Shown one piece after another: positions 27,401 to 63,519 of a DNA stretch of 64,000 nucleotides. Origin of the DNA: a virus. The stretch lies in the IMG/VR virus record IMGVR_UViG_3300029704_000004, one strand, 5' to 3'. Position numbers and translations under genes: made by a program. How positions within the stretch are numbered: position 1 is the stretch's first letter; every line of letters begins with the position of its first letter. The notes below the pieces were generated by a model. That model worked only from the letters and a program-made list of their open reading frames with translations, searched no databases and was not told the origin of the DNA.

Positions 27401-30400
27401 GGAAAACATTTTGAAGACATTAAAGCTAGAGCTGCTAAAGTTGGTGTTTCAGTTGACATCAATAAGATATTTGATAAGAACGGAAATATAGTTCGTAATT
27501 ATACAGATAAATTTGTTGAAGATATTAAAGAACTTAAACGTAATGTAGCTAAAGCTAGAGTTAATGTTCAAGAGAATCCAATGGAATATATTCAAGCTAA
27601 ACATAAACTTGATAAGTTCCTTCTTGACCACGTTAATCGTGAATATGTTGATAGTTATTATCAGAAGCTTTATGATGAAGATGAATTTATTATTAATAAT
27701 CATCCTCAAATTTATTCTGAGTATGTAAAACTTCGAGAAGCTATTAGACAGATTAATAGTCGTAGAATTGATGGCGTTTTAAGTAAAGAGTTTGAAGATA
27801 AACTTGTCGAACTCAGAACTAAGATTAATGATTTAACTAGTCAATTTATTGGTAATGAGTATAAGCCAGCTTACGAATATGGTTTTCCTGGTACTGAACA
27901 AGCTCCTGATGGTAGCATTATTGTAACTAATCAAGAAGTTTATGATAATGCTCGTAAACAGTCTCTTAATGATGCCGTTCAATTAGACCAATATCTTAGA
28001 AGAATTAAAGATATTAAGGAAGAATATACTGCTAAAGAGGAGAAAGAGGGTTTCCATGATATGCTTGATAAAATGCTTAATATTATTGATAATGCTGAAG
28101 TTAGAGATTCTAACGGTAAAGTCACTACTCCAGCTAGTCAGCTTGACACTAATAAAGAGTATAAGAAAGCTAAAGAATGGATTGCTAATAATGCTCATTG
28201 GTCAGTAGATGATGTTCTTAAAGTTAGAATTGAAGATGCTTATAAAAAACTTGGTATTACTAATTTCAAAGCTTCTAAAGCTAGAGCATTTATTAAAGAT
28301 AAACTAGCTAAAGGTGAACAGATTTATGATGAGTTTGGTAATATTGATGCTAGTAAGTTTACTAATACAGAGATTGCTGCAATTAAAGAAGACGTAGAAC
28401 GTAATTATGGTACAACTAATACCTCTTTATTCTCTGATAGAAATCTTATAAATTCAGCTGAACCAACTAATGAAGCTGCTCCTAGTGAGTTCTTTAAAAT
28501 GCTTAATAGTGGCGGTATGACTAATCCTGAGTATCAAGAGATTATCACTAAGATTAATAATATTACTCGTAAATATTATAATAGTGCTGCTAAAATAGTT
28601 GAAACTTCTAAGATGAGTATCGAAGATTTGAAATCTCTTGGAGACCTTTACGATGAATTAGATAAAACTAAGAAACATAAAGGAAAAGGCAGTTACGATG
28701 CTTATCAAGCATATAGTAAATATGCTAAAGAAAATGTAAACGAACAAGCTTATTATTCTGAAGAAGATGAAGCTAAGAAGCGAACTGAACCAGAGTTCTA
28801 TACTTTATGGAAGCGAGTTAATGCTAGATATGAAGTTCTTAGAGATAAGAAAGGTAAAATAGTTATTGATGAAACAACTGGTAAAGCTGTTTATGATTTA
28901 ACTAAAGCACCAACACCTAATCATTGGCTTTATACTACTATTGCTCCTAATGATGCTTATTGGGAAGATTTAAACAAACGTGACCCTAAAGAAGCAGCCA
29001 GACAAAAGAAAGAAGTTGAGGATAAAACTAAAGCTCAAGAGTTCCTTAGTAATACTCTTGAAACTATTAATACTCCTCAATATTATAAAGCTAAAAATGC
29101 TGCTCTTGCAAAAGGTATCGCTTATTATAAAGAATGGTATAATAACAATCATGTTTACAATCCATTTACTCATGCTTACGAAGCTCTTCCTATTTGGAAT
29201 AGAACAAGAGTTATTCCTAGTATAGATAATGGTGAGTATTCTCCTAATTGGACTCAGACTACTCTTACTCCTAAAGCTCATTATAAGAATCCAAATTATA
29301 TTGAAGGCTATACAGATAATGAAAATTATAAAACTGTTGAAACTGATGATAAAAATGGAACTACTCATGTTCCTGGTTATGATAATAATTTAGGACTTAA
29401 TGAGTACGAGCAAGAAGCTAAACAATATATTCAAGATACTCTCATGAGTTTTGCTAAAACTGAAACTGCAAAGAGAGCTATTGCTAGTGGAATGGCTCCT
29501 CATAGAGCTAAGAAAGCAGAACATGACGCTAAATGGGCTGCAAAGCAAGCTAAAGAGTTTATTGGATTTAGTGATATGCTTCCTAGCGGTAAAGATAGTT
29601 GGTATGAGAAGATTGATTACTCTGAAGATAGAACTATCGATATGCCTATGCTAATGACTCAACTTAAAAATAAGGAGAGTGTTGACTTGGATAATATTCG
29701 TAGTACTAAACCGAAGAGAGAAACTTATGCTAGTGATGAAGCTTATGAAAAAGATTTAGAAGCTTATCAAAAACGTATTGATGAAGCAATTAAGAAAAAC
29801 GAAGAAATACATCAAAAACTTCTTGATAGAGATTATATTGGTGCTATTCAAGATTTCATTAGTGCTGCCGGACATTATAATGCTATTCAAGACAATAAAC
29901 AATTATTGTTCTATACACATAGAATGTTAGGTAAGATGAAAGCTTATGATACTAATCTTGGTTGGAATAACTTACGTAAAGATAGTCAAACTAGTACAAG
30001 TGATGAAACTTCTTATATTGAGAAAGTTGATACTCGTCTTCAAGAACAATTTGATAACTGGGTTCGTAGATTAGTTTATGACCAATATAAAATTCCTCAG
30101 AATAAGTTAACTAGAACTGCTAGTATGCTTCAAAGTTTTACTAGTGCTAAATTTATGATGTTAAACATTACGGGTGGTATTGGTAACATAACTGTTGGTG
30201 AATCTGCTATTGCTGGAGAATATATAGCTAAAGAGTACTTCACTCCTACAGGTTGGTTAAAAGGAAAGAACATGTGGAGACATGCTATTCCAAGCTTTAT
30301 TAGAGGTATGGCTAACGAAGATAGTACAACACTTGCTGATGCTCTTGTTAAGTTTATGAATATTGTTGACTTTGATGAAGTTAATAATAGACCTACAGTA

Positions 30401-47816: not shown

Positions 47817-49229
47817 TCAATCTACAATACAATAATCATAATTATTATCACTTTTAACTTCAATTTCAGTTTTATTAAGAATTAGATGATTTGCGCCATT
47901 AACACGCTCATCTAGTTTTTTCTCCTCTAAAGAGCCTTTATAATATAAGGTGTATAATTGTACCTCCTTTGCGAATTGAACCTTTGAGAGCCTATATAAG
48001 TAGGTCTCCATGGTATCACACAACGGCGACGTAATTACAACAACGTCTACATTTACGGCTAAATCCTTATCGGGAGAAGCATTTGTAGACAAAACGTGAA
48101 TAGCACCTTTGTTCATCAACTTTTGAGCTAAATTTTTCTGAGATTTTACACCAAGCATTTTTGGTTTTCCCTTATTAACTCCACTCTTAATTAGAACTTC
48201 ATTTCCATTATCATCAATAGCAGGAATATTTTCTACTTTATCGTGATAATTATAACAAGTATTATAATGAGTATTATCATTAATATATTTAGTTACTTCA
48301 TTTGCAAAGTCACCATGTTTATTAATAATAAGAATATTCTTATCTGCATTGTCTTCAACAATCTTTAAAATATAACTAAGTTTCTCATCAGAAGAAGCAA
48401 GAGCAAGACTTCTACTTCTAATAATTTCGTATATTCCACTAGCACGTTCTTTAAGGGCATTTGGAGAATAAAGTTCGTCTATTTCAATATTAAATTGAAT
48501 AGTCATATCAAGATTCTCATTCCAACCATTTTGACGAGCTATGTTATAACATACAGCCATACTAGAACTATTAGTATTACTATTACCTAGACGAGCCATC
48601 TTAATTGTTTCAAAGTCACCAAAGATAGCTATAGCAGTAGATATTTCTTTATTATAATAGTCAAGTTTCTTTTTAAGATTACTATCTTCATCTATAATCA
48701 AAGGAACTAATACTTCTTTTACGGGGCGGCTAGAACGGATTTCATCTACACTAGCTTGATTATAATAACCAACTCTAGGAATTAGATTATTAATTTGTTC
48801 TAACTTACCAGTAAGTAGAGTTGATGATAATACCAACTTAAACTTTGCTTTGTCTAGCAGACCTACATAACAATAAAGACATTCTTTAGGATTATAAATA
48901 ACCACTAAAGTAGGATTTAGATGACTAAATATATCTGTAGCTTCACTAACAGTTAAAATTTTAATCAATCCTCTAGTAATAAAATTACTATAAACATTAG
49001 AATGAACAGGTTCGCTCTTATGTAATAGATAATCTTTAACTTTGTCTTTATCTACAAAGTCTGCAACTACAATATCAGTCTCTATTGTAGGACTTTTATT
49101 ATACATTGCAGGAAGTATCATCAATAAAGGTCTAAGAACATCTAAAGGAGCAGGAATTATAAAAGTTCCAATTCCTTTATTCATTCTCCATTGATAAACA
49201 CTTTTTTCATGCAATTCTTCTTCTGTCAT
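47817..49229 (-). CDS. SF2 helicase-like protein (C-terminal helicase domain pattern, no Walker A seen)
   Basis: NILIINKHGDFANEVTKYIN ... LMNKGAIHVLSTNASPDKDLAVNVDVVVITSP ... YLYRLSKV resembles helicase motifs IV-VI. No GxxxxGK[ST] found. Carries motif copy 12. Confidence 0.4.
   Translation of the reverse strand: MTEEELHEKSVYQWRMNKGIGTFIIPAPLDVLRPLLMILPAMYNKSPTIETDIVVADFVDKDKVKDYLLHKSEPVHSNVYSNFITRGLIKILTVSEATDIFSHLNPTLVVIYNPKECLYCYVGLLDKAKFKLVLSSTLLTGKLEQINNLIPRVGYYNQASVDEIRSSRPVKEVLVPLIIDEDSNLKKKLDYYNKEISTAIAIFGDFETIKMARLGNSNTNSSSMAVCYNIARQNGWNENLDMTIQFNIEIDELYSPNALKERASGIYEIIRSRSLALASSDEKLSYILKIVEDNADKNILIINKHGDFANEVTKYINDNTHYNTCYNYHDKVENIPAIDDNGNEVLIKSGVNKGKPKMLGVKSQKNLAQKLMNKGAIHVLSTNASPDKDLAVNVDVVVITSPLCDTMETYLYRLSKVQFAKEVQLYTLYYKGSLEEKKLDERVNGANHLILNKTEIEVKSDNNYDYCIVD
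48711..48736 (+). repeat. GC-rich motif family, copy 12 (+)
   Basis: TACTTCTTTTACGGGGCGGCTAGAAC. Translated on the minus strand as SSRPVKEV. Confidence 0.9.
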
Positions 49230-50290
49230 TGTTCTTCTTCATTATCAAATAAATCATTATATAATCCAAAATTCTTCTTTAACAAAGATTTTCCACTGAG
49301 AGTTTTATTCTTTGAATTACCTTTCTGATTAGGACTTATTCCGAGCTTAATAGGATTAATAATCTTATAAGCTTCTTCATAATAATAAGCATAATCTATA
49401 TTACGCTCACTAATATCTTTATCATCAAGTAAATTAAGAATTTGTACTGGTTTTCCACTAGCTAAAACACTACGAGCACCAGTAGTTACGTGTTCTTTCA
49501 TAATCACAACTCCTTTAGTAGAAACATAAAATCTAACATGACGTTGACTATGTATATCTACTACTTTTCCGTCAACTACTTTTTGATAAACAACTTCAAA
49601 TTGTCTACCTACATTTTGAGTTTTACAGAAATCAAGAATATCTTTATGATTACGAAGCGTTTCCATTACAGATTTACCATGAGCAAAATACTCAAATACA
49701 GCAGTAGCTACAACTGGCATATCATATCCTTTTTTAAGGTCTTTGATATACTGTTTTGGGTCTAGTGCTCCTTTATACTCAATTTTATCGTTACTTTGAA
49801 TATCAAAATAGTTATTCACATTTAAGCTAACAAGCATCTTGTAATGTTCATCATCAGCAGACATCTTATTAGTTTCATTCCATTCTTTACAAATTTGATT
49901 ATAAACATCAACTTTGTCATAAGGAAGTTTTATAACGATACCATCAGTATTTGCACTAACTACATGTATTCCTGCTAATTCAAGAGATTCACAAAGAGTC
50001 ATTGTCATTAACTGACCATTAATTGTAACTCTCATTTGTGCAAGTCTATCATAAAGCCAGAAATTTTCATAGCCATACTTTCCGTAAATAGCATTGATTA
50101 CAATCTTCAATGCTTCTGCTGCAAGTTTATTATGAACTCCTGGTACTACAAAACCATCTTTATCGTCTGTATGTTTACATTTAACACGAGTTTGTTTAAA
50201 GTAATCTACCATTTTTGCAAACACCTTACGATTAAGATGTGCAGGTACTACTTCATAACTTATCATTATACTCGGATAATATGATGTATA
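49226..50290 (-). CDS. family B DNA polymerase, exon 2
   Basis: Begins YTSYYPSIM (second half of motif A DxxSLYPS). LKIVINAIYGKYG is motif B (KxxxNSxYG). VSANTDGIVI is motif C (DTD-like). Confidence 0.8.
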   Translation of the reverse strand, partial: YTSYYPSIMISYEVVPAHLNRKVFAKMVDYFKQTRVKCKHTDDKDGFVVPGVHNKLAAEALKIVINAIYGKYGYENFWLYDRLAQMRVTINGQLMTMTLCESLELAGIHVVSANTDGIVIKLPYDKVDVYNQICKEWNETNKMSADDEHYKMLVSLNVNNYFDIQSNDKIEYKGALDPKQYIKDLKKGYDMPVVATAVFEYFAHGKSVMETLRNHKDILDFCKTQNVGRQFEVVYQKVVDGKVVDIHSQRHVRFYVSTKGVVIMKEHVTTGARSVLASGKPVQILNLLDDKDISERNIDYAYYYEEAYKIINPIKLGISPNQKGNSKNKTLSGKSLLKKNFGLYNDLFDNEEEQ

Positions 50291-51381
50291 CAAATTTGTT
50301 AATCTACATATTTCTATGTAGTTCAGACTATATCTTCATTGCGCACCATAATAGTTCTTTCTCTACCCTTACCACTAGTAATAACATTTCCAGCATCATC
50401 AAGATAATGCCAAATATATCCTTTACCAGTCTTTTTAGAACCATTACAACAACCTAATAATGTGGATTTTGCAAGTCCACTAGCTTTACAAGCTTCATCG
50501 CTATTTTCATATTCAGCAATCTTATGACCATCATATCTATCAAATTGACCAATACGATTAAATTTAAGTTTCCTCATCTTTTCACGGAACTCTTTAGTTT
50601 TATGAGTTTCGTGAGATTGAGTAGCCCAAGCTAAACGTTGACTATCAGAATGATAAGTATCTTTAATCATAAGATTATATAGTTTAGACAAACCATAAGA
50701 CTTTTGATAATCTCTTTCTTTTTCAAATAGATTTTCATTAGTCTCTTCAAGTATGCTAACTTTGAATTTATCTATACCATATTTATTATAATCAGCTTGT
50801 AATCTTTTATTAGGATGATTACCTAGTCTAAGATTACTATAATGTTTTACTACACGTTTATAAATATCTTTAGAAGAACCAATATAATTTTGATTATTTA
50901 TTTCACAAGTGATACAATAAATACCACTTTTATCTTTTAAATGAGTAAAATAACCATAATATACATTTTGATTACTTCTAACTTTACCATAACCGTTAAA
51001 CCCATCAGGAGTAGCATTTTTATGTTTTCTACTTACCTTAATCTTAGACACATCAAATACTAACTTTAATTTCGACAAATCTTTCATAATCTTTATAATT
51101 TAAATTATTAATAAAACACTGTGAAACAAAGGTAATATCTTTTGGGTAATAACACAATGCAAGGTGCTTCGATTTAAATAAATTTAAACCTACGTCTTAC
51201 GACTAGTCGTTGAACCTTCTTCCTTATTAGGAAGCTCGGCTGCGGATTGTCCAATATTATCTTCTTTTACTATACTCTCAGTCTTTCTCTGAGACCAACA
51301 TCTGCATTACTGCGATGATTAGTGAGATAATCTCTAAGGAGTTCCCCGTCAATTCACCTTGTTTAATCACGACTTACATCA
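50291..51381 (-). mobile_element. group I intron carrying a GIY-YIG homing endonuclease gene
   Basis: 1091 nt split polB motif A. Exon 1 ends ...CACGAU and pairs with the intron's GUCGUG (51368-51373), a P1 helix with a U-G pair at the splice site. The intron's last nucleotide is G (50291). Splicing restores the frame HHD|YTSYYPS. The 51088-51381 segment is GC-richer and structured. Confidence 0.7.
50323..51087 (-). CDS. GIY-YIG homing endonuclease (intron-encoded)
   Basis: SGIYCITCEINNQNYIGSSKDIYKRVVKHYSNL gives GIY-N10-YIG plus conserved R and H. The C-terminal ACKASGLAKSTLLGCCNGSKKTGKGYIWHY resembles NUMOD/IENR1-type DNA-binding modules. Confidence 0.8.
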   Translation of the reverse strand: MKDLSKLKLVFDVSKIKVSRKHKNATPDGFNGYGKVRSNQNVYYGYFTHLKDKSGIYCITCEINNQNYIGSSKDIYKRVVKHYSNLRLGNHPNKRLQADYNKYGIDKFKVSILEETNENLFEKERDYQKSYGLSKLYNLMIKDTYHSDSQRLAWATQSHETHKTKEFREKMRKLKFNRIGQFDRYDGHKIAEYENSDEACKASGLAKSTLLGCCNGSKKTGKGYIWHYLDDAGNVITSGKGRERTIMVRNEDIV

Positions 51382-52590
51382 ATCGTGATGAACATAAACA
51401 TATTTATCAGTACTTTTAAGTATTACAGGCTTGTCTTGAGTATGAATACCACCAGTTGCTAGAGTATACGTTGTACCATAAAATTCTATTTCACGTACAA
51501 AACTATCTTTATTAGTTCTATATATAACAACTTTCTTCATTTCTTCAAGTAAATCTTGAAGTTGTTTAGTCTTAAACTTAATATGAGGAAATATTATTTT
51601 ATTAAAACTAAGAGCAGTTCTTTGTGTACGAAGATTTTTAAAAGCATCTTCATGCAAACCACTACGTTCAGCATAAAACTTATTTAATAGTTTATCTGCA
51701 ATATTACTTCTAGCACTACATAAGAAGTTTATTCTATAAGCGTGACCAAGACTATATCTAAGTATAACTTCATCAGGCTTTTGTCTTACCATTTCACAAC
51801 AAAGAAATACATCATTCTTATTATAATGTAACATAGGTTCAACATACTTAGGAAGAAGATACCTATTAAAATCAGCAGTAATCAAATGATTTAATTGTTC
51901 ATTAGTCATACCTCTATAAGCATCTCTTTTTCTATATATATCACCTTCTTCATCATCAATAGGAGGAAGTTTAAAATCAAGAAGATTATACCATTTAAGA
52001 TTAATACTAACTTGTTTTAAACTTTTACCATACTTCTTACGTTCACCAGTGTCTTTATCTATATTCACTCCAGCAGAATTAAGAGCAAATATCTTAAACA
52101 AATCTACAGTTACATAATGAACTCTATACTTACGAATAAGATTTAACAGTTTATCTTGCCATAAAGCATCTTTATCATCTTGTAATGATATAATTTTATC
52201 ATTCACTTCTTTAAGAAATGAACAAAGTTGTTTTGTATTATCAAAACGATTCCAATACATTAGAAATGCTTTAATCAATATATCATCATATCCTTGATTG
52301 TTATAACCATATAAATCATATCTGTCAACAGAACCATCTTCATGTTCTACAGGTCTCATTTTTTCAAAGAAATCTATAATACTCAACATTTGAGAATCAT
52401 CTGTATCACTAACATAAAATATCCAGCTTTTTACACTATCAAGTCTAGATGTTATTTCTTCAACTGTTAAACTATCAGTAAGAGCACCTTTACAATCTGC
52501 AAATTTATCAAGATAATCTTTTAAATCTACAAAAGTAAACGAAATCATATTCTCAAAGACTTCCAAGTCCACACATAAACTATGTATCAT
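51382..52590 (-). CDS. family B DNA polymerase, exon 1 (3'-5' exonuclease domain)
   Basis: ExoI VDLEVF, ExoII YNNQGYDDILI, ExoIII YNKNDVFL. Ends ...YVYVHHD (the D of motif A). The track end at 51379 includes an in-intron TGA. Confidence 0.8.
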
Positions 52591-59432: not shown

Positions 59433-59582
59433 TTAATAATCAAAGTCAATATCATCGCCAAAGCCAGAACCATCACCATCCTCAGCTTTTATTTCTCCAT
59501 ATAAATCATAATCATCAATATCATTATTTATACAGAAGGCATCAACTTCTTGGGCATTTAAATCAAATTCATTATCTGTCAT
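59433..59582 (-). CDS. small highly acidic protein
   Basis: The track ORF starts at a TTG inside the promoter. The ATG at 59582 (MTDNEFDLNAQEVDAF...) is the likely start. Confidence 0.45.
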   Translation of the reverse strand: MTDNEFDLNAQEVDAFCINNDIDDYDLYGEIKAEDGDGSGFGDDIDFDY

Positions 59583-59615
59583 AACACTTAATAGTTTATT
59601 TATTAATATTTGCTG

Positions 59616-59623
59616 CAAAGATA
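59616..59623 (-). promoter_or_regulatory. Bacteroidetes-type -7 box (minus strand TATCTTTG)
   Basis: Minus strand reads CATTATCTTTGCAGCAAAT, 33 nt upstream of the ATG at 59582. Confidence 0.55.
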
Positions 59624-59656
59624 ATGAATTTGATTAATATTCCAATATTCTTTAAC

Positions 59657-60472: not shown

Positions 60473-60518
60473 AATTCTTTAATTTAAAATGTTTATAATG
60501 TTAATTAATACGAATAAT

Positions 60519-60836
60519 TTATTTATATACTTTACCACTAGTTAAACTTTCATTTATTTCTCTACTATAGAAATTATCTCCATCTATATTAGATAAATCA
60601 ATATGTTTACTAAATGCTAAAGAATCTATTGAATCTTTATATTTCATACCTTTTACGGGGCGGCTAGAACTATTATCTGGTTCTACCATATTAATATTAT
60701 GATTATTATAATTAATATTATTTTCATCATATATTAATATTCCATTAAGATAAATAATATAACTAAATATACTTAATAATAAAATAATAATAAGTATCAG
60801 CAATAGTTTATTTTCTGTTTTCTTTTCCATAATCAA
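60519..60836 (-). CDS. small membrane protein (N-terminal TM)
   Basis: LLLILIIILLLSIFSYIIYL. Carries motif copy 16 (SSRPVKGMK). Confidence 0.55.
   Translation of the reverse strand: MIMEKKTENKLLLILIIILLLSIFSYIIYLNGILIYDENNINYNNHNINMVEPDNSSSRPVKGMKYKDSIDSLAFSKHIDLSNIDGDNFYSREINESLTSGKVYK
60644..60670 (+). repeat. GC-rich motif family, copy 16 (+), full consensus
   Basis: TCATACCTTTTACGGGGCGGCTAGAAC. Confidence 0.9.
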
Positions 60837-60853
60837 ATAAATTAATTAAATAA

Positions 60854-60883
60854 ACTAGTACTATCTTCACAGACCGTACTAGT
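60854..60883 (-). terminator. hairpin or terminator (minus strand) with CTTCACAG loop
   Basis: 8-bp stem ACTAGTAC / GTACTAGT, followed by T-rich sequence on the minus strand. Confidence 0.5.
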
Positions 60884-60918
60884 AGCAACAGAACTTTATT
60901 TTGGAAATGGGAAGTCTT

Positions 60919-61071
60919 TTATTCATCTTTATCAACGTTATTAATTATAACAATACCACTTATAAAAAGTAGTACAATCCCAATTACATTTATAAAACTT
61001 ATATGGTCATCAGCACCATGACTTATAAGTATTAAAGATAAGAACAGAATTGGTACTGCAATTATCTTCAT
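60919..61071 (-). CDS. small two-TM membrane protein (below the ORF-track length cut-off)
   Basis: 50 aa, MKIIAVPILFLSLILISHGADDHISFINVIGIVLLFISGIVIINNVDKDE. Confidence 0.4.
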   Translation of the reverse strand: MKIIAVPILFLSLILISHGADDHISFINVIGIVLLFISGIVIINNVDKDE

Positions 61072-61094
61072 TATGTATTTTATTAAATCTATCT

Positions 61095-61340
61095 TCATAG
61101 TTCTTCTACAATTTTAATATTAATATTATCAACGTTGTAAATATCAATTAAATCACGTTTAATAATATCACAATCATCAACAACAATAGAATAATCTTCA
61201 AGAGTACCAAATATTCTTTTATCTTTAGTATCATTATCGATAGTATTATCTTTATTAATAGCACTTATATCTTTGACTATATTAATAAGAAATAAAATAT
61301 CTCTTTTAGTGATACCTATAGTATTATCTTTCCAAATCAT
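61095..61340 (-). CDS. hypothetical small acidic protein
   Basis: 81-aa ORF. Confidence 0.5.
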   Translation of the reverse strand: MIWKDNTIGITKRDILFLINIVKDISAINKDNTIDNDTKDKRIFGTLEDYSIVVDDCDIIKRDLIDIYNVDNINIKIVEEL

Positions 61341-61646
61341 AACATTAATATATATTGAGATTAAACATTCAGTAACTAAAGACTTATTAAATCAAGTATA
61401 GTAATATCCAGTAAATCAGGTCAAGAGAGTAAGAATTGGACTTAAAGTCTTGTAAACAAGAGATAAAGGAGATAAAATAGATGATTAGATAAGTCGGATG
61501 AGCAACAGTAATAATAGTTGGAAGAGTAATATGATTAATAATAAGGTTAAAGTGAAAGGAAGATGAGAATAAGGAATTGTTGTAGGAATAGTTATAGCAA
61601 ATATTCTACATATACTTCCATTCACTTCAACTTTATAACAAACTCT

Positions 61647-61865
61647 TTAAATAACTCTTACTTTAACTCCAACTATATTTTCATATAATAAAGTTAATCC
61701 TTTACCATCTTCATCCATAAATGCTATACCTATGTCTCCATAAGCTACTTTATCATAACAATTATAAATCATATTATTGGTTTCAATTAATATATGAACC
61801 AATTCATCTTCTTTAAGATAATCATTATAATCTTTAACTATCTTTTGTACTAAATGTTTATTCAT
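61647..61865 (-). CDS. small protein, member of a 72-74-aa paralog trio
   Basis: Same length and pattern as 62152..62376 and 62434..62652. C-terminal YENIVGVKV compared with FDDIIGIQF and YDKIVEINV. Confidence 0.5.
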   Translation of the reverse strand: MNKHLVQKIVKDYNDYLKEDELVHILIETNNMIYNCYDKVAYGDIGIAFMDEDGKGLTLLYENIVGVKVRVI

Positions 61866-61941
61866 ATCTTTATTTGTTTAATTATTAACTCTTATTGGTG
61901 TAACAATGGCTCAAGTCTCGTTTCACTCAACTTTCGGCTTA

Positions 61942-62005
61942 ATTTATATATAAATAAATATATAATAACTGCGTTATTATATTATATATTTATTTATATA
62001 TAAAT
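61942..62005. repeat. AT-only imperfect palindrome (about 28-bp arms)
   Basis: Left arm 61942-61969, loop TGC, right arm 61973-62005 with a 5-nt TATAT bulge. Confidence 0.8.
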
Positions 62006-62044
62006 ATACGTGCGTGCGTATGCGTGTACGTGCGTGCGCGTGTA
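62004..62044. repeat. 41-nt perfectly alternating purine-pyrimidine tract (potential Z-DNA)
   Basis: ATATACGTGCGTGCGTATGCGTGTACGTGCGTGCGCGTGTA. ACGTGCGTGCG occurs twice, at 62008 and 62028. Confidence 0.85.
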
Positions 62045-62054
62045 ATTCTTAATG

Positions 62055-62150
62055 TTACACCAAATCACTATGATTTATATAATTATAAGGATATTCATAA
62101 TCATTAATATTATCATAAATATCCTCATAATCAATAGTATCTACACTCAT
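62055..62150 (-). CDS. tiny acidic Tyr-rich peptide (tentative)
   Basis: ATG at 62150 lies 1 nt after the stop of 62152..62376 (MSVDTIDYEDIYDNINDYEYPYNYINHSDLV). The longer track ORF to 62261 lies inside the upstream gene. Confidence 0.3.
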   Translation of the reverse strand: MSVDTIDYEDIYDNINDYEYPYNYINHSDLV

Positions 62151-62151
62151 G

Positions 62152-62376
62152 TTATTTTTGAAACTGAATACCAATAATATCATCAAAATTAATAGTTTCA
62201 CCATAAACGCCGCTATAAGTCCAAGACAAAACACTAATATTATCACCATCAATATTATCAATGATAGCTTTATTAACTACATATTCACCTTCACCTTTAT
62301 TAACTCTAATAGTAAGACTTTTATCATTAAAAGCCTTATAAGCTACAAGAATAGCTAAAATCATTGTTTTATCCAT
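62152..62376 (-). CDS. small protein, paralog trio member
   Basis: 74 aa. Its upstream leader AGGAGAACTATATTATG is shared with 62434..62652. Confidence 0.5.
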   Translation of the reverse strand: MDKTMILAILVAYKAFNDKSLTIRVNKGEGEYVVNKAIIDNIDGDNISVLSWTYSGVYGETINFDDIIGIQFQK

Positions 62377-62433
62377 AATATAGTTCTCCTATACTTTAAA
62401 AATTAATACTAAAATAATGAGCAGTTTTAATAC

Positions 62434-62652
62434 TTACTCAGGTACATTTCTAACATTGATTTCAACAATCTTATCATAAGCAACATAAGGTGCATATTTA
62501 TCATTACTAAAATATACACCTTTTGTATCAAAATCATTTACTTCAACATTATTATAAACATTACCATTATTTGTAACAATAGTAACATTAACACTATCAT
62601 CCTTTATAGGCATAATAGCTTCGCAAATATTCATCGCTAAATAATTATTCAT
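62434..62652 (-). CDS. small protein, paralog trio member
   Basis: 72 aa with the same leader AGGAGAACTATATTATG. Confidence 0.5.
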   Translation of the reverse strand: MNNYLAMNICEAIMPIKDDSVNVTIVTNNGNVYNNVEVNDFDTKGVYFSNDKYAPYVAYDKIVEINVRNVPE

Positions 62653-62734
62653 AATATAGTTCTCCTATTTTAAATTAATAATAAGAAAAGTCTTAAAAGT
62701 CTTATAAGGAATTTTACTAACTTTTCACTGTCGG

Positions 62735-62804
62735 GTCTTGTTTTTTTCTTGATGACCAAGTCTTGTTCTTTTCTTGATGAGCACTCTCATTTTTTTCTTG
62801 ATGA
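62735..62804. repeat. iteron-like direct repeats, cluster 1 (2.7 copies of GTCTTGTTTTTTTCTTGATGA)
   Basis: 62735-62755, 62760-62780, and a partial copy at 62790-62804. Confidence 0.8.
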
Positions 62805-62833
62805 GTTGCAAGAGTAAGAACAAAACTAACAAG

Positions 62834-62856
62834 GAGTAGAGCACTAAGCTCTACTC
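62834..62856 (-). terminator. hairpin or terminator after 62865..63410
   Basis: 9-bp stem GAGTAGAGC / GCTCTACTC with loop ACTAA. Only an interrupted T-rich tail follows on the minus strand. Confidence 0.45.
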
Positions 62857-62864
62857 TAGGTTAA

Positions 62865-63410
62865 CTACTTGTTCTCAACAGGCTTTTCAGCAACAACTTC
62901 AGTAACTTCAGCAGCAACAGTCTTGCTTGCATTAACTGCTGCAAGAACCATCGTAGGAGTCTTTGGTGCATCAAAGATGATAGCTTGATTCAAATCACAA
63001 GGCTCGATAGCTTTGATTTGATTATCATATCGTTCTCCTTTAGTCACTGCTTTAGAACCATCACTGAGTTGATATTCAGTGCCAGAAGCTTGTAATTCAC
63101 TAGTGAATGTAATCACACTGCCAAGTAGCAAATCTCTTGCTACTTCTTGGCTCATTTCATAAGGATTAATACCTGAAATGAAGTAAGAATGCAGAGGAGC
63201 AACTTCATTCACAAAATGAACGAATTGCTTCAAGGTAAACTTGATAAAGTTCACTTTAGCTTTCTCAAATGTGATTGCACCAGTTGTGGTATCAACATTA
63301 CGTTTGAAACCATCAAACATAGCATTTGTAAATATCTTGATATTCACAACACCATCAACATTAGACAACTCAACACGATTGATAACTGCTTTAATCTGTA
63401 ACATAATCAT
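62865..63410 (-). CDS. abundant-type hypothetical protein, possible paralog of 59930..60472
   Basis: 181 aa with GC-richer codon usage and an Ala/Val/Glu-rich tail. Confidence 0.6.
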   Translation of the reverse strand: MIMLQIKAVINRVELSNVDGVVNIKIFTNAMFDGFKRNVDTTTGAITFEKAKVNFIKFTLKQFVHFVNEVAPLHSYFISGINPYEMSQEVARDLLLGSVITFTSELQASGTEYQLSDGSKAVTKGERYDNQIKAIEPCDLNQAIIFDAPKTPTMVLAAVNASKTVAAEVTEVVAEKPVENK

Positions 63411-63473
63411 AAAAATTTAAATAATTATAATCAGTTGGTACACGACCAACAGCAGAAGTCCTTCTCCTGCCAA

Positions 63474-63519
63474 GTCTTGTTTTTTTCTTGATGAATTGTT
63501 CTTGTTTTTTCTTGATTGA
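63474..63519. repeat. iteron-like direct repeats, cluster 2
   Basis: 63474-63494 is identical to 62735-62755. 63498-63519 is a variant, GTTCTTGTTTTTTCTTGATTGA. Confidence 0.8.

Follow-up and report, generated by a model that had tools for sequence, protein, structure and literature searches.

The crAss-like phages rank among the most abundant human gut viruses, and, to our knowledge, neither replication origins nor promoters of the injected RNA polymerase have been established for them so far. The primary origin of phage T7 consists of the promoters phi1.1A/B and a 61-bp AT-rich region, and the T4 origins oriF/ori(34) combine a middle promoter with an unwinding element. In plasmid pT181, the initiator enhances the extrusion of a cruciform at IR-II, and in pMV158 the nick site TACTACG lies in a hairpin loop. 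Coliphage N4 carries three similar hairpin promoters, with stems of 5-7 bp, at its genome end. Z-DNA-forming tracts in supercoiled plasmids were reportedly studied by Peck and Wang in 1983, and Arbiol et al. are said to have described in 2010 the PeSLs, 'mobile regulatory cassettes' of T4-type phages. Among the crAss-like phages, the virion RNA polymerase of phi14:2 uses denatured or single-stranded DNA templates only, and the early promoters of this phage share no motif (bioRxiv 10.1101/2020.03.07.982082). In Carjivirus communis, two origins lying ~2.6 kb apart have been predicted at the head of the replication arm, where nanopore coverage was highest (PMC10983915). Furthermore, Z-DNA and cruciform transitions compete for superhelical energy (Zhabinskaya and Benham, 2013; PMC3834812). 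No description of Z-DNA-prone tracts, or of palindromes such as the one reported below, was found for crAss-like phages in the literature searched.

The window analyzed here (the whole stretch of 64,000 nt, from a viral contig of IMG/VR) belongs to a crAss-like phage (Crassvirales, Obtuvirinae, Fohxhuevirus) related to cr8_1. The 3 kb around the element (60500-63500) were 83.8% identical to this uncultured phage (Crassvirales; Intestiviridae; Obtuvirinae; Fohxhuevirus), and a complete relative of 94,079 nt (G001) had 46% of the window's sampled words in common. The GC content of the window is ~30%, and its two gene arms converge near 32 kb, with a tRNA-Gln alongside. In cr8_1, the arm bearing the element runs from the divergent gene switch through ~20 small unknown genes to helicases, uracil-DNA glycosylase, DNA polymerase, RecT, primase and ligase. 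The element is a cassette at the head of this replication-gene arm, where it separates the fourth gene from the fifth. In the ORF map, a 189-nt spacer (61866-62054) separates a 31-aa ORF and a 72-aa gene, both on the minus strand. When read on that strand, the cassette consists of the stop of the 31-aa ORF, ~15 nt, a C-rich tract, an A-U palindrome, a 27-nt hairpin, a 44-nt leader and the ATG. Its features and the flanking genes are the following:

61866..62063, minus strand, whole single-copy intergenic cassette, bounded by the stop region of the 31-aa ORF and the start codon of the 72-aa gene
62055..62150, minus strand, upstream 31-aa acidic ORF (MSVDTIDYEDIYDNINDYEYPYNYINHSDLV), annotated as a CDS in cr8_1
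62053..62063, no strand, right copy of the outer 11-bp inverted repeat TTGGTGTAACA, overlapping the stop codon of the 31-aa ORF
62004..62044, no strand, unbroken purine-pyrimidine (CG/TG/TA) tract of 41 nt, Z-DNA-prone and of hypervariable length among relatives
61942..62005, no strand, AT-only palindrome, with arms at 61942-61967 and 61980-62005 and a spacer at 61968-61979
61910..61936, minus (gene-sense) strand, small hairpin CGA-AAGU-UGA-GU-GAA-AC-GAG-ACUU-GAG (RNAalifold consensus)
61866..61909, minus strand, leader and ribosome-binding region of the 72-aa gene, including the left copy of the outer repeat (61895-61905)
61647..61865, minus strand, downstream 72-aa gene, a variable cassette gene (ORF map)

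No tRNA or tmRNA was detected at the cassette, and the neighboring small proteins gave no significant Pfam or PHROG match.

The tract at 62004-62044 is the sole alternating run of at least 16 nt in the 64-kb window. No alternating run of 24 nt appeared in 100 dinucleotide shuffles, and the longest run in simulated windows reached 13-18 nt at most. The unbroken alternation over 41 nt that an earlier note on this DNA had pointed out is therefore real and far beyond chance. The 20-nt internal repeat was also found as that note had it, with ACGTGCGTGCG present at 62008 and 62028, 20 nt apart, although it was not retained in all of the alleles described below. The GC content of the tract is 56%. 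The tract had also been called the most GC-dense stretch of the minus arm, which held at the 30-nt scale, where it was the top of that arm and tied for the highest value of the whole window (0.67), but not at the 60-nt scale, where other stretches surpassed it. Unbroken alternation over at least ~12 bp, mainly in CG and CA/TG steps, is the mark of a Z-DNA-forming sequence, and the tract has both.

The palindrome, described previously as imperfect, with arms of about 28 bp made only of A and T, is indeed restricted to these two bases, but its arms are perfect (100% complementary) and 26 nt long each, with a 12-nt spacer, ACTGCGTTATTA, between them. An alternative pairing consists of ~23 bp, a 5-nt bulge, a 5-bp tip and a 3-nt loop. 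The center reads AAC-TGC-GTT on the plus strand, that is, AAC-GCA-GTT on the gene-sense strand. This is the longest inverted repeat in the window and the only perfect stem of at least 14 nt in the 64 kb, while the longest perfect stem was of 9-12 nt in 20 Markov-1 simulations of the window. Its DNA fold z-score was -5.15. By sequence criteria (long perfect arms, short spacer, AT-richness) it is a predicted cruciform-forming palindrome. It is also the least stable 60-bp duplex both of the window and of G001 (~+3.9 SD), as expected of an AT-rich unwinding element.

The B-Z transition of the tract was estimated to occur near sigma -0.033 to -0.041, and the extrusion of the cruciform near sigma -0.023 to -0.034, in both cases for domains of at least 5 kb. 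These thresholds are calculated estimates that use textbook energy parameters. Both fall within the bacterial sigma range, and the supercoil-sensitive combination of Z-DNA and cruciform proposed in the earlier note is consistent with them at the level of a textbook-energy estimate. Since the two transitions would draw on the same superhelical energy, they must interact. The tract resembles the d(CG)n/d(CA)n Z-DNA tracts of plasmids in its unbroken alternation of 36-41 bp, rich in CG and CA/TG, and in its position beside an extrusion-prone inverted repeat. Nevertheless, those tracts are engineered or incidental, whereas that of the window is natural and its design has been kept across diverged lineages.

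To describe the variation of the cassette, viral and metagenome contigs were scanned for its pattern, and ~16 independent cassette-bearing genomes were obtained. The cassette was present once per genome. These near-identical genomes carried 13 alleles of the tract, ranging from 23 to 53 nt and all of them 100% alternating from anchor to anchor; the differences were transitions and even-length indels, and neither a transversion nor an odd-length indel was found in the 13 alleles. The core TGTACGTGCG is common to many tracts and absent from 3 of the 13 alleles. The flanks of the cassette were nearly invariant (95-100% identical among close relatives), and the tract could be used in practice as a strain-level length marker. 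About half of the close relatives had a single uncompensated bulge or mismatch in the palindrome, which would penalize a DNA cruciform more than an RNA hairpin.

The leader was conserved up to the ATG, beyond which the coding sequence diverged to ~55-75%; the 72-aa gene was 55-80% identical to its relatives, versus 95-100% for the flanking DNA, and in other relatives its place was taken by a different gene. On one side, gene replacements started directly beyond the tract, and on the other they began at the start codon, so that the cassette is a mosaic joint, retained as a unit while the genes on either side are swapped. The proposal that the region is a recombination hotspot fits these junctions, which lie exactly at both cassette edges. 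The cassette is similar to the PeSLs of T4-type phages, which are likewise conserved intergenic stem-loop cassettes, lie on either side of small early genes that are exchanged rapidly, and serve as joints for recombination. However, PeSLs are multi-copy and have a recognizable early promoter, whereas this cassette is single-copy and lacks one. The conservation of the cassette among close relatives was discarded as an argument, because most of the backbone is also 95-100% identical and such conservation says little; the argument rests on the distant lineages.

An alignment based on the helicase (A2) provided 80 loci, with a helicase identity from 99% down to 44%. In 1.5 Mb from relatives, GC-rich alternating tracts (18-53 nt, 50-70% GC) were found solely upstream of the helicase, in the early arm. 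The design, a GC-rich alternating tract beside an AT palindrome, was present in a group with 65% helicase identity and in lineages with 45-52%. Two arrangements were observed in the 65% group, in which the end of the 31-aa ORF is also retained upstream of the cassette. Type A has the same layout as the window (C-rich tract, AT palindrome with the same tip, small hairpin, leader), and its palindrome arms differ from those of the window and are still complementary, as in a change from A-T to G-C at the base. In type B, the polarity of the tract is reversed and a (TA)n palindrome follows, with a covarying GC hairpin before the tract; this arrangement was also found in a lineage with 52% identity (L075). 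In the type B loci L046:3969-4060 and L075:3970-4063, a conserved hairpin lies between two alternating tracts, with covarying stems (GCCTTTAC-TAAA-GTAAAGGC vs GCCAATACC-TAAA-GGTATTGGC), and the first of the two tracts contains a 12-bp perfect palindrome, ACGTGCGCACGT.

The lineages with 45-55% identity had alternating tracts and/or AT palindromes centered on AC-GTA-GT or its complement. The center AC-GYA-GT was found, in either orientation, in L064, L070, L094, L108 and L111, and the hairpin tip of the window and its relatives reads ACTACGT or ACTGCGT on one strand. The order tract, palindrome, genes was constant. Across lineages, the features retained were thus the alternation, the high GC content of the tract, its location next to an AT palindrome, the order with respect to the arm and the center of the palindrome; sequence, length and strand were not retained. 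No alternating tract was found in many related lineages among the 80 helicase loci, and neither an alternating tract nor a long palindrome was found in Carjivirus (first 12 kb), cr271_1 or phi14:2 (early region). Phage ctcc615 (Wotdevirus) has AT palindromes only, at the switch. Its AT-only palindrome cluster, with stems of up to 28 nt, is located at the divergent switch (L031:13243-13372), and a 22-bp perfect hairpin lies between small genes ~3.5 kb into the arm (L031:9756-9814); there was no alternating tract at either site.

The comparison with relatives that the earlier note had suggested as a check showed that the design, not the letters, is kept across diverged phages. This argues, at the level of sequence comparison, that the element is under selection, since its design is conserved while its letters change. 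For the same reason, the cassette probably signals, through DNA structure, the start of replication or transcription. Moreover, the flip of tract polarity, the occurrence of the palindrome center in both orientations and the placement in control regions outside operons in several lineages point to a property of the duplex DNA. Overall, the feature fits best among the known structure-dependent initiation and control elements, as a variant with a putative function. A single copy is the usual state of an origin or of a control site that is unique, and it is unusual for a generic promoter or terminator.

Among the known systems close to the cassette are the two predicted origins of Carjivirus communis, which belongs to the same family and in which the genomic neighborhood and the spacing from the switch to the second site are the same. 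Those origins are predictions supported by coverage only. Furthermore, unlike the phage of the window, Carjivirus has RepL genes, and its first 12 kb lack both an alternating tract and a long palindrome. PF05732 (RepL) matched Carjivirus communis BK010471.1 twice (28826-29206 and 96279-96650), and gave no match in G001, cr8_1, cr271_1 or ctcc615. PF01719, the family cited for RepL in PMC10983915, corresponds to Rep_OBD in the Pfam copy searched and had no match in Carjivirus. No match to PF01719 (Rep_OBD, HUH) was found in G001, cr8_1 and three relatives, while the control genome was detected. Hence, no initiator gene was recognized: RepL and Rep_OBD were absent, and the neighboring genes had no significant Pfam or PHROG matches. 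Like the origins of T7 and T4, the cassette places a readily unwound AT-rich block, in one or few copies and with a defined direction, in the transcribed early/replication region of a phage with its own polymerase, primase and helicases. In contrast to them, it has no recognized promoter, its AT block is a perfect palindrome coupled to a GC-rich tract, and it is a candidate origin only. A supercoil-extruded hairpin with a short, conserved, G/C-containing tip would also make it a candidate relative of the rolling-circle double-strand origins of pT181 and pMV158, but its arms are much longer and consist only of A and T, and no HUH/Rep_OBD gene was found here or in the relatives.

The position of the element relative to GC skew was variable. 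In G001, the cumulative skew reaches its minimum at the divergent gene switch (~71 kb), and the element follows at ~73.4 kb, ~2.4 kb inside the arm, with a skew between switch and element as negative as in the rest of the arm. In five other loci (L064, L079, L107, L108 and L111, of which L108/L111 represent the G002 lineage), the divergent control region itself holds the element. There, it was at or within ~0.2 kb of the skew minimum in L107, L108 and L064 and ~0.3-0.4 kb from it in L079 and L111, so that element and minimum coincide in L107 and L108, nearly coincide in L064, L079 and L111 and are apart in the phage of the window. The origin proposed in the earlier note thus does not agree with the skew inflection of this phage, and yet it is plausible given that the equivalent elements of distant relatives sit at the switch. 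In the G002 lineage, with 45% helicase identity, at least three iteron-like ACACGCACGTAYA boxes with a spacing of 27-33 nt (L117:171-252) lie upstream of AT palindromes of 14 bp and 26 bp, near the skew minimum (~0.3 kb in the sister contig L111).

A T-rich unstable repeat field and a set of 21-nt repeats near the switch are at least as origin-like as the element. The 21-nt word TCATCAAGAAAAAAACAAGAC occurs four times on the minus strand, in 62735-62804 and at 63474-63494, against a chance expectation of 0.02 copies; three copies are in tandem upstream of the gene at 62434-62652 and one is upstream of the gene at 62865-63410. Near the strand switch, these repeats could serve as operators, as early promoters or as a set of iterons.

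Contigs from relatives frequently stopped at these palindromes. Seven IMG/VR contigs begin or end inside AT palindromes or tracts (L037, L059, L070, L095, L097, L108 and L109), and a contig end was located at most 10 kb upstream of the helicase in 34 of the 80 loci. The ends of the 'linear' G002 genome (L117 and L118) overlap by ~70 nt with one mismatch, which indicates that the contig ends are assembly breaks at palindromes and not physical termini. The idea that the element marks a pac site or the physical ends of the genome was rejected for this reason. A protelomerase target (telRL) was also rejected, as PF16684 (ResT/TelK) was absent and the contig end at the palindrome center is an assembly break. 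The palindromes thus explain the recurrent assembly breaks in crAss-like genomes.

Two smaller inverted repeats accompany the palindrome. The small hairpin, located ~45-70 nt upstream of the ATG, showed changes on both sides in four of its seven pairs (RNAalifold, 19 sequences). In 16 distinct sequences, 98.2% of the cells were paired, versus 19-39% with slid partners, and the covariation score and the count of both-side changes exceeded those of all 500 shuffles. The covariation comes mostly from one deep split and from one independent event in cr8_1, and it is therefore considered suggestive. Two of the pairs are G-U and workable on the sense strand only. A covariance model of this hairpin gave a single hit in each genome and no further hit in 1.7 Mb; a multi-copy promoter motif was discarded accordingly, the model having detected no copy in distant relatives either. 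The copies of the outer inverted repeat TTGGTGTAACA (61895-61905 and 62053-62063) bracket the whole element, but a functional stem was rejected in view of four kinds of uncompensated change in the close group, and judging from these sequences the 11-bp repeat is probably without a structural role.

As regards the promoter role put forward in the earlier note, the cassette contains no host-type promoter. The Bacteroidota -7 box TAnnTTTG, with or without TTTG at -33, was not found on either strand of 61866-62063, and the phage's own TATCTTTGCAG boxes are located outside this interval. No intrinsic terminator was found on the sense strand of the cassette, where the hairpin is AU-only and followed by UUAAGCC, and terminator-like sites were detected on the antisense (plus) strand only. 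Searches against Rfam at gathering and permissive thresholds matched only a tRNA elsewhere, with the best local scores at 22-26 bits versus cut-offs of 90-112.

These observations bear on whether the cassette works as RNA, as a promoter of another kind, or not at all. Perfect RNA duplexes of more than 22 bp are classic substrates of RNase III, and RNase III-type cuts separate the T7 early genes. The 26-bp A-U hairpin would be such a substrate, and it could be a processing or stability site in a polycistronic early mRNA, with the small GA-rich hairpin as a leader operator or stabilizer and the tract as a hitch-hiking microsatellite. The location between co-directional genes, lacking both a host-type promoter and a sense-strand terminator, agrees with such an RNA-level element, as do the fixed orientation of the cassette and its end at a start codon, the four covarying pairs of seven and the two sense-only G-U pairs of the small hairpin, and the tolerance of the long stem to single bulges. 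However, the tract swaps strand polarity between relatives while keeping its alternation and GC content, the palindrome center occurs in both orientations, several lineages have the palindrome in the divergent region between promoters, outside any operon, and no Rfam family was matched. An action through RNA is regarded as rather unlikely, but it is kept as a strong competitor of the reading preferred below. Transcription could instead start from the DNA hairpins themselves, extruded by supercoiling and read as single strands by the injected virion RNA polymerase, which would transcribe from gene 5 onward as in N4. The crAss-like virion polymerase gp66 requires a denatured or single-stranded template and its early promoters have no linear consensus; in addition, both hairpins of the cassette have 3-nt loops closed by C-G (the DNA hairpins of N4, which need negative supercoiling, have 3-nt loops as well), the small one lies ~45-70 nt upstream of the ATG, and tract, palindrome and genes keep a constant order. 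Nevertheless, N4 has several short-stemmed promoters and an unrelated polymerase, while there is a single element with a 26-bp stem here. One copy per genome is not what an early region in need of several promoters would have, the element comes only after the first four genes of the arm, and the G-U pairs of the small hairpin become C-A mismatches on the template strand. The early non-coding regions of phi14:2, considered as a characterized analogue, were rejected because they have no comparable tract or long palindrome. A promoter of the N4 type is considered very unlikely.

It is also conceivable that the cassette has no dedicated function and that a slippage-prone CG/TG microsatellite and an AT palindrome simply persist in a conserved linker, as a mere homology patch for the exchange of small genes. 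The extreme length polymorphism of the tract would be expected, slippage in 2-nt steps together with transitions would keep the alternation automatically, the common TGTACGTG core is missing from some alleles, the mosaic junctions are at both edges and many related lineages have no tract. What speaks against this is that a tract of 50-67% GC has been kept in genomes of ~29% GC at 45-65% helicase identity, invariably beside the AT palindrome and, with respect to the arm, on its upstream side, that the symmetry and center of the palindrome were conserved through changes on both arms, and that not one of the 13 alleles has a transversion or an odd-length indel. The absence of any dedicated function is considered quite unlikely.

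The reading preferred here, which we put forward tentatively as a serious possibility somewhat short of probable, is that the core of the cassette is a supercoil-responsive site of the origin type, for unwinding and hairpin extrusion, that acts mainly on DNA itself. Negative supercoiling, introduced by gyrase or arising in the wake of transcription of the four upstream genes, would cause the AT-only palindrome to melt or to extrude as a cruciform, presenting the conserved hairpin tip AC-GYA-GT. The abutting tract would flip to Z-DNA and absorb or buffer torsion, or else a phage protein would bind it at several sites in a row (core TGTACGTGCG). Synthesis toward the replication arm would then be started by a phage enzyme with a requirement for single-stranded or hairpin DNA (an initiator, a primase or the ssDNA-dependent virion RNA polymerase). 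We infer that these structures form in vivo, that such an enzyme uses them and that the product is DNA rather than RNA. Possibly, the tract consists of protein sites in an array, and its alternation is a by-product of their tandem growth.

A more specific version of the preferred reading, which we consider doubtful, is that Z-DNA and cruciform form one coupled module, a torsion-operated start site for replication or early transcription, in which selection would keep alternation, palindromy and the 7-nt tip rather than the sequence, and the length of the tract would tune the threshold. If true, this would be a natural and conserved use of left-handed DNA in a bacteriophage and a rare case in which evolution visibly preserves the potential for Z-DNA and cruciform together. 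As a single-copy element of conserved structure, the cassette offers a clonable candidate of ~200 bp for a replication origin or for a promoter of the injected polymerase.

Additionally, several features were observed in the vicinity of the cassette and further along the arm. The first gene of the arm (181 aa) is directly followed, on the minus strand, by a terminator-like hairpin, GAGTAGAGC-TTAG-TGCTCTACTC (62834-62856), and then by a weak -7-like box, TAGTTTTG, at 62828. One gene downstream of the cassette there is a gene-free block of 306 nt (61341-61646), purine-rich on the plus strand, with an inverted repeat at 61541-61562 and 61615-61636; this block and the cassette together bring to mind phi14:2, for which two early intergenic regions with high transcription have been reported. 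At 59553-59643 and 59623 (minus strand), a 61-aa acidic protein is preceded by a host-type -7 box, TATCTTTGCAG; an inverted repeat of 25 nt overlaps this box and would pair the leader with the gene start. Finally, the DNA polymerase region (49226-52590, minus strand) consists of three separate ORFs of 355, 254 and 403 aa, which suggests that the gene is interrupted by an intervening element, read through a recoded stop or split.
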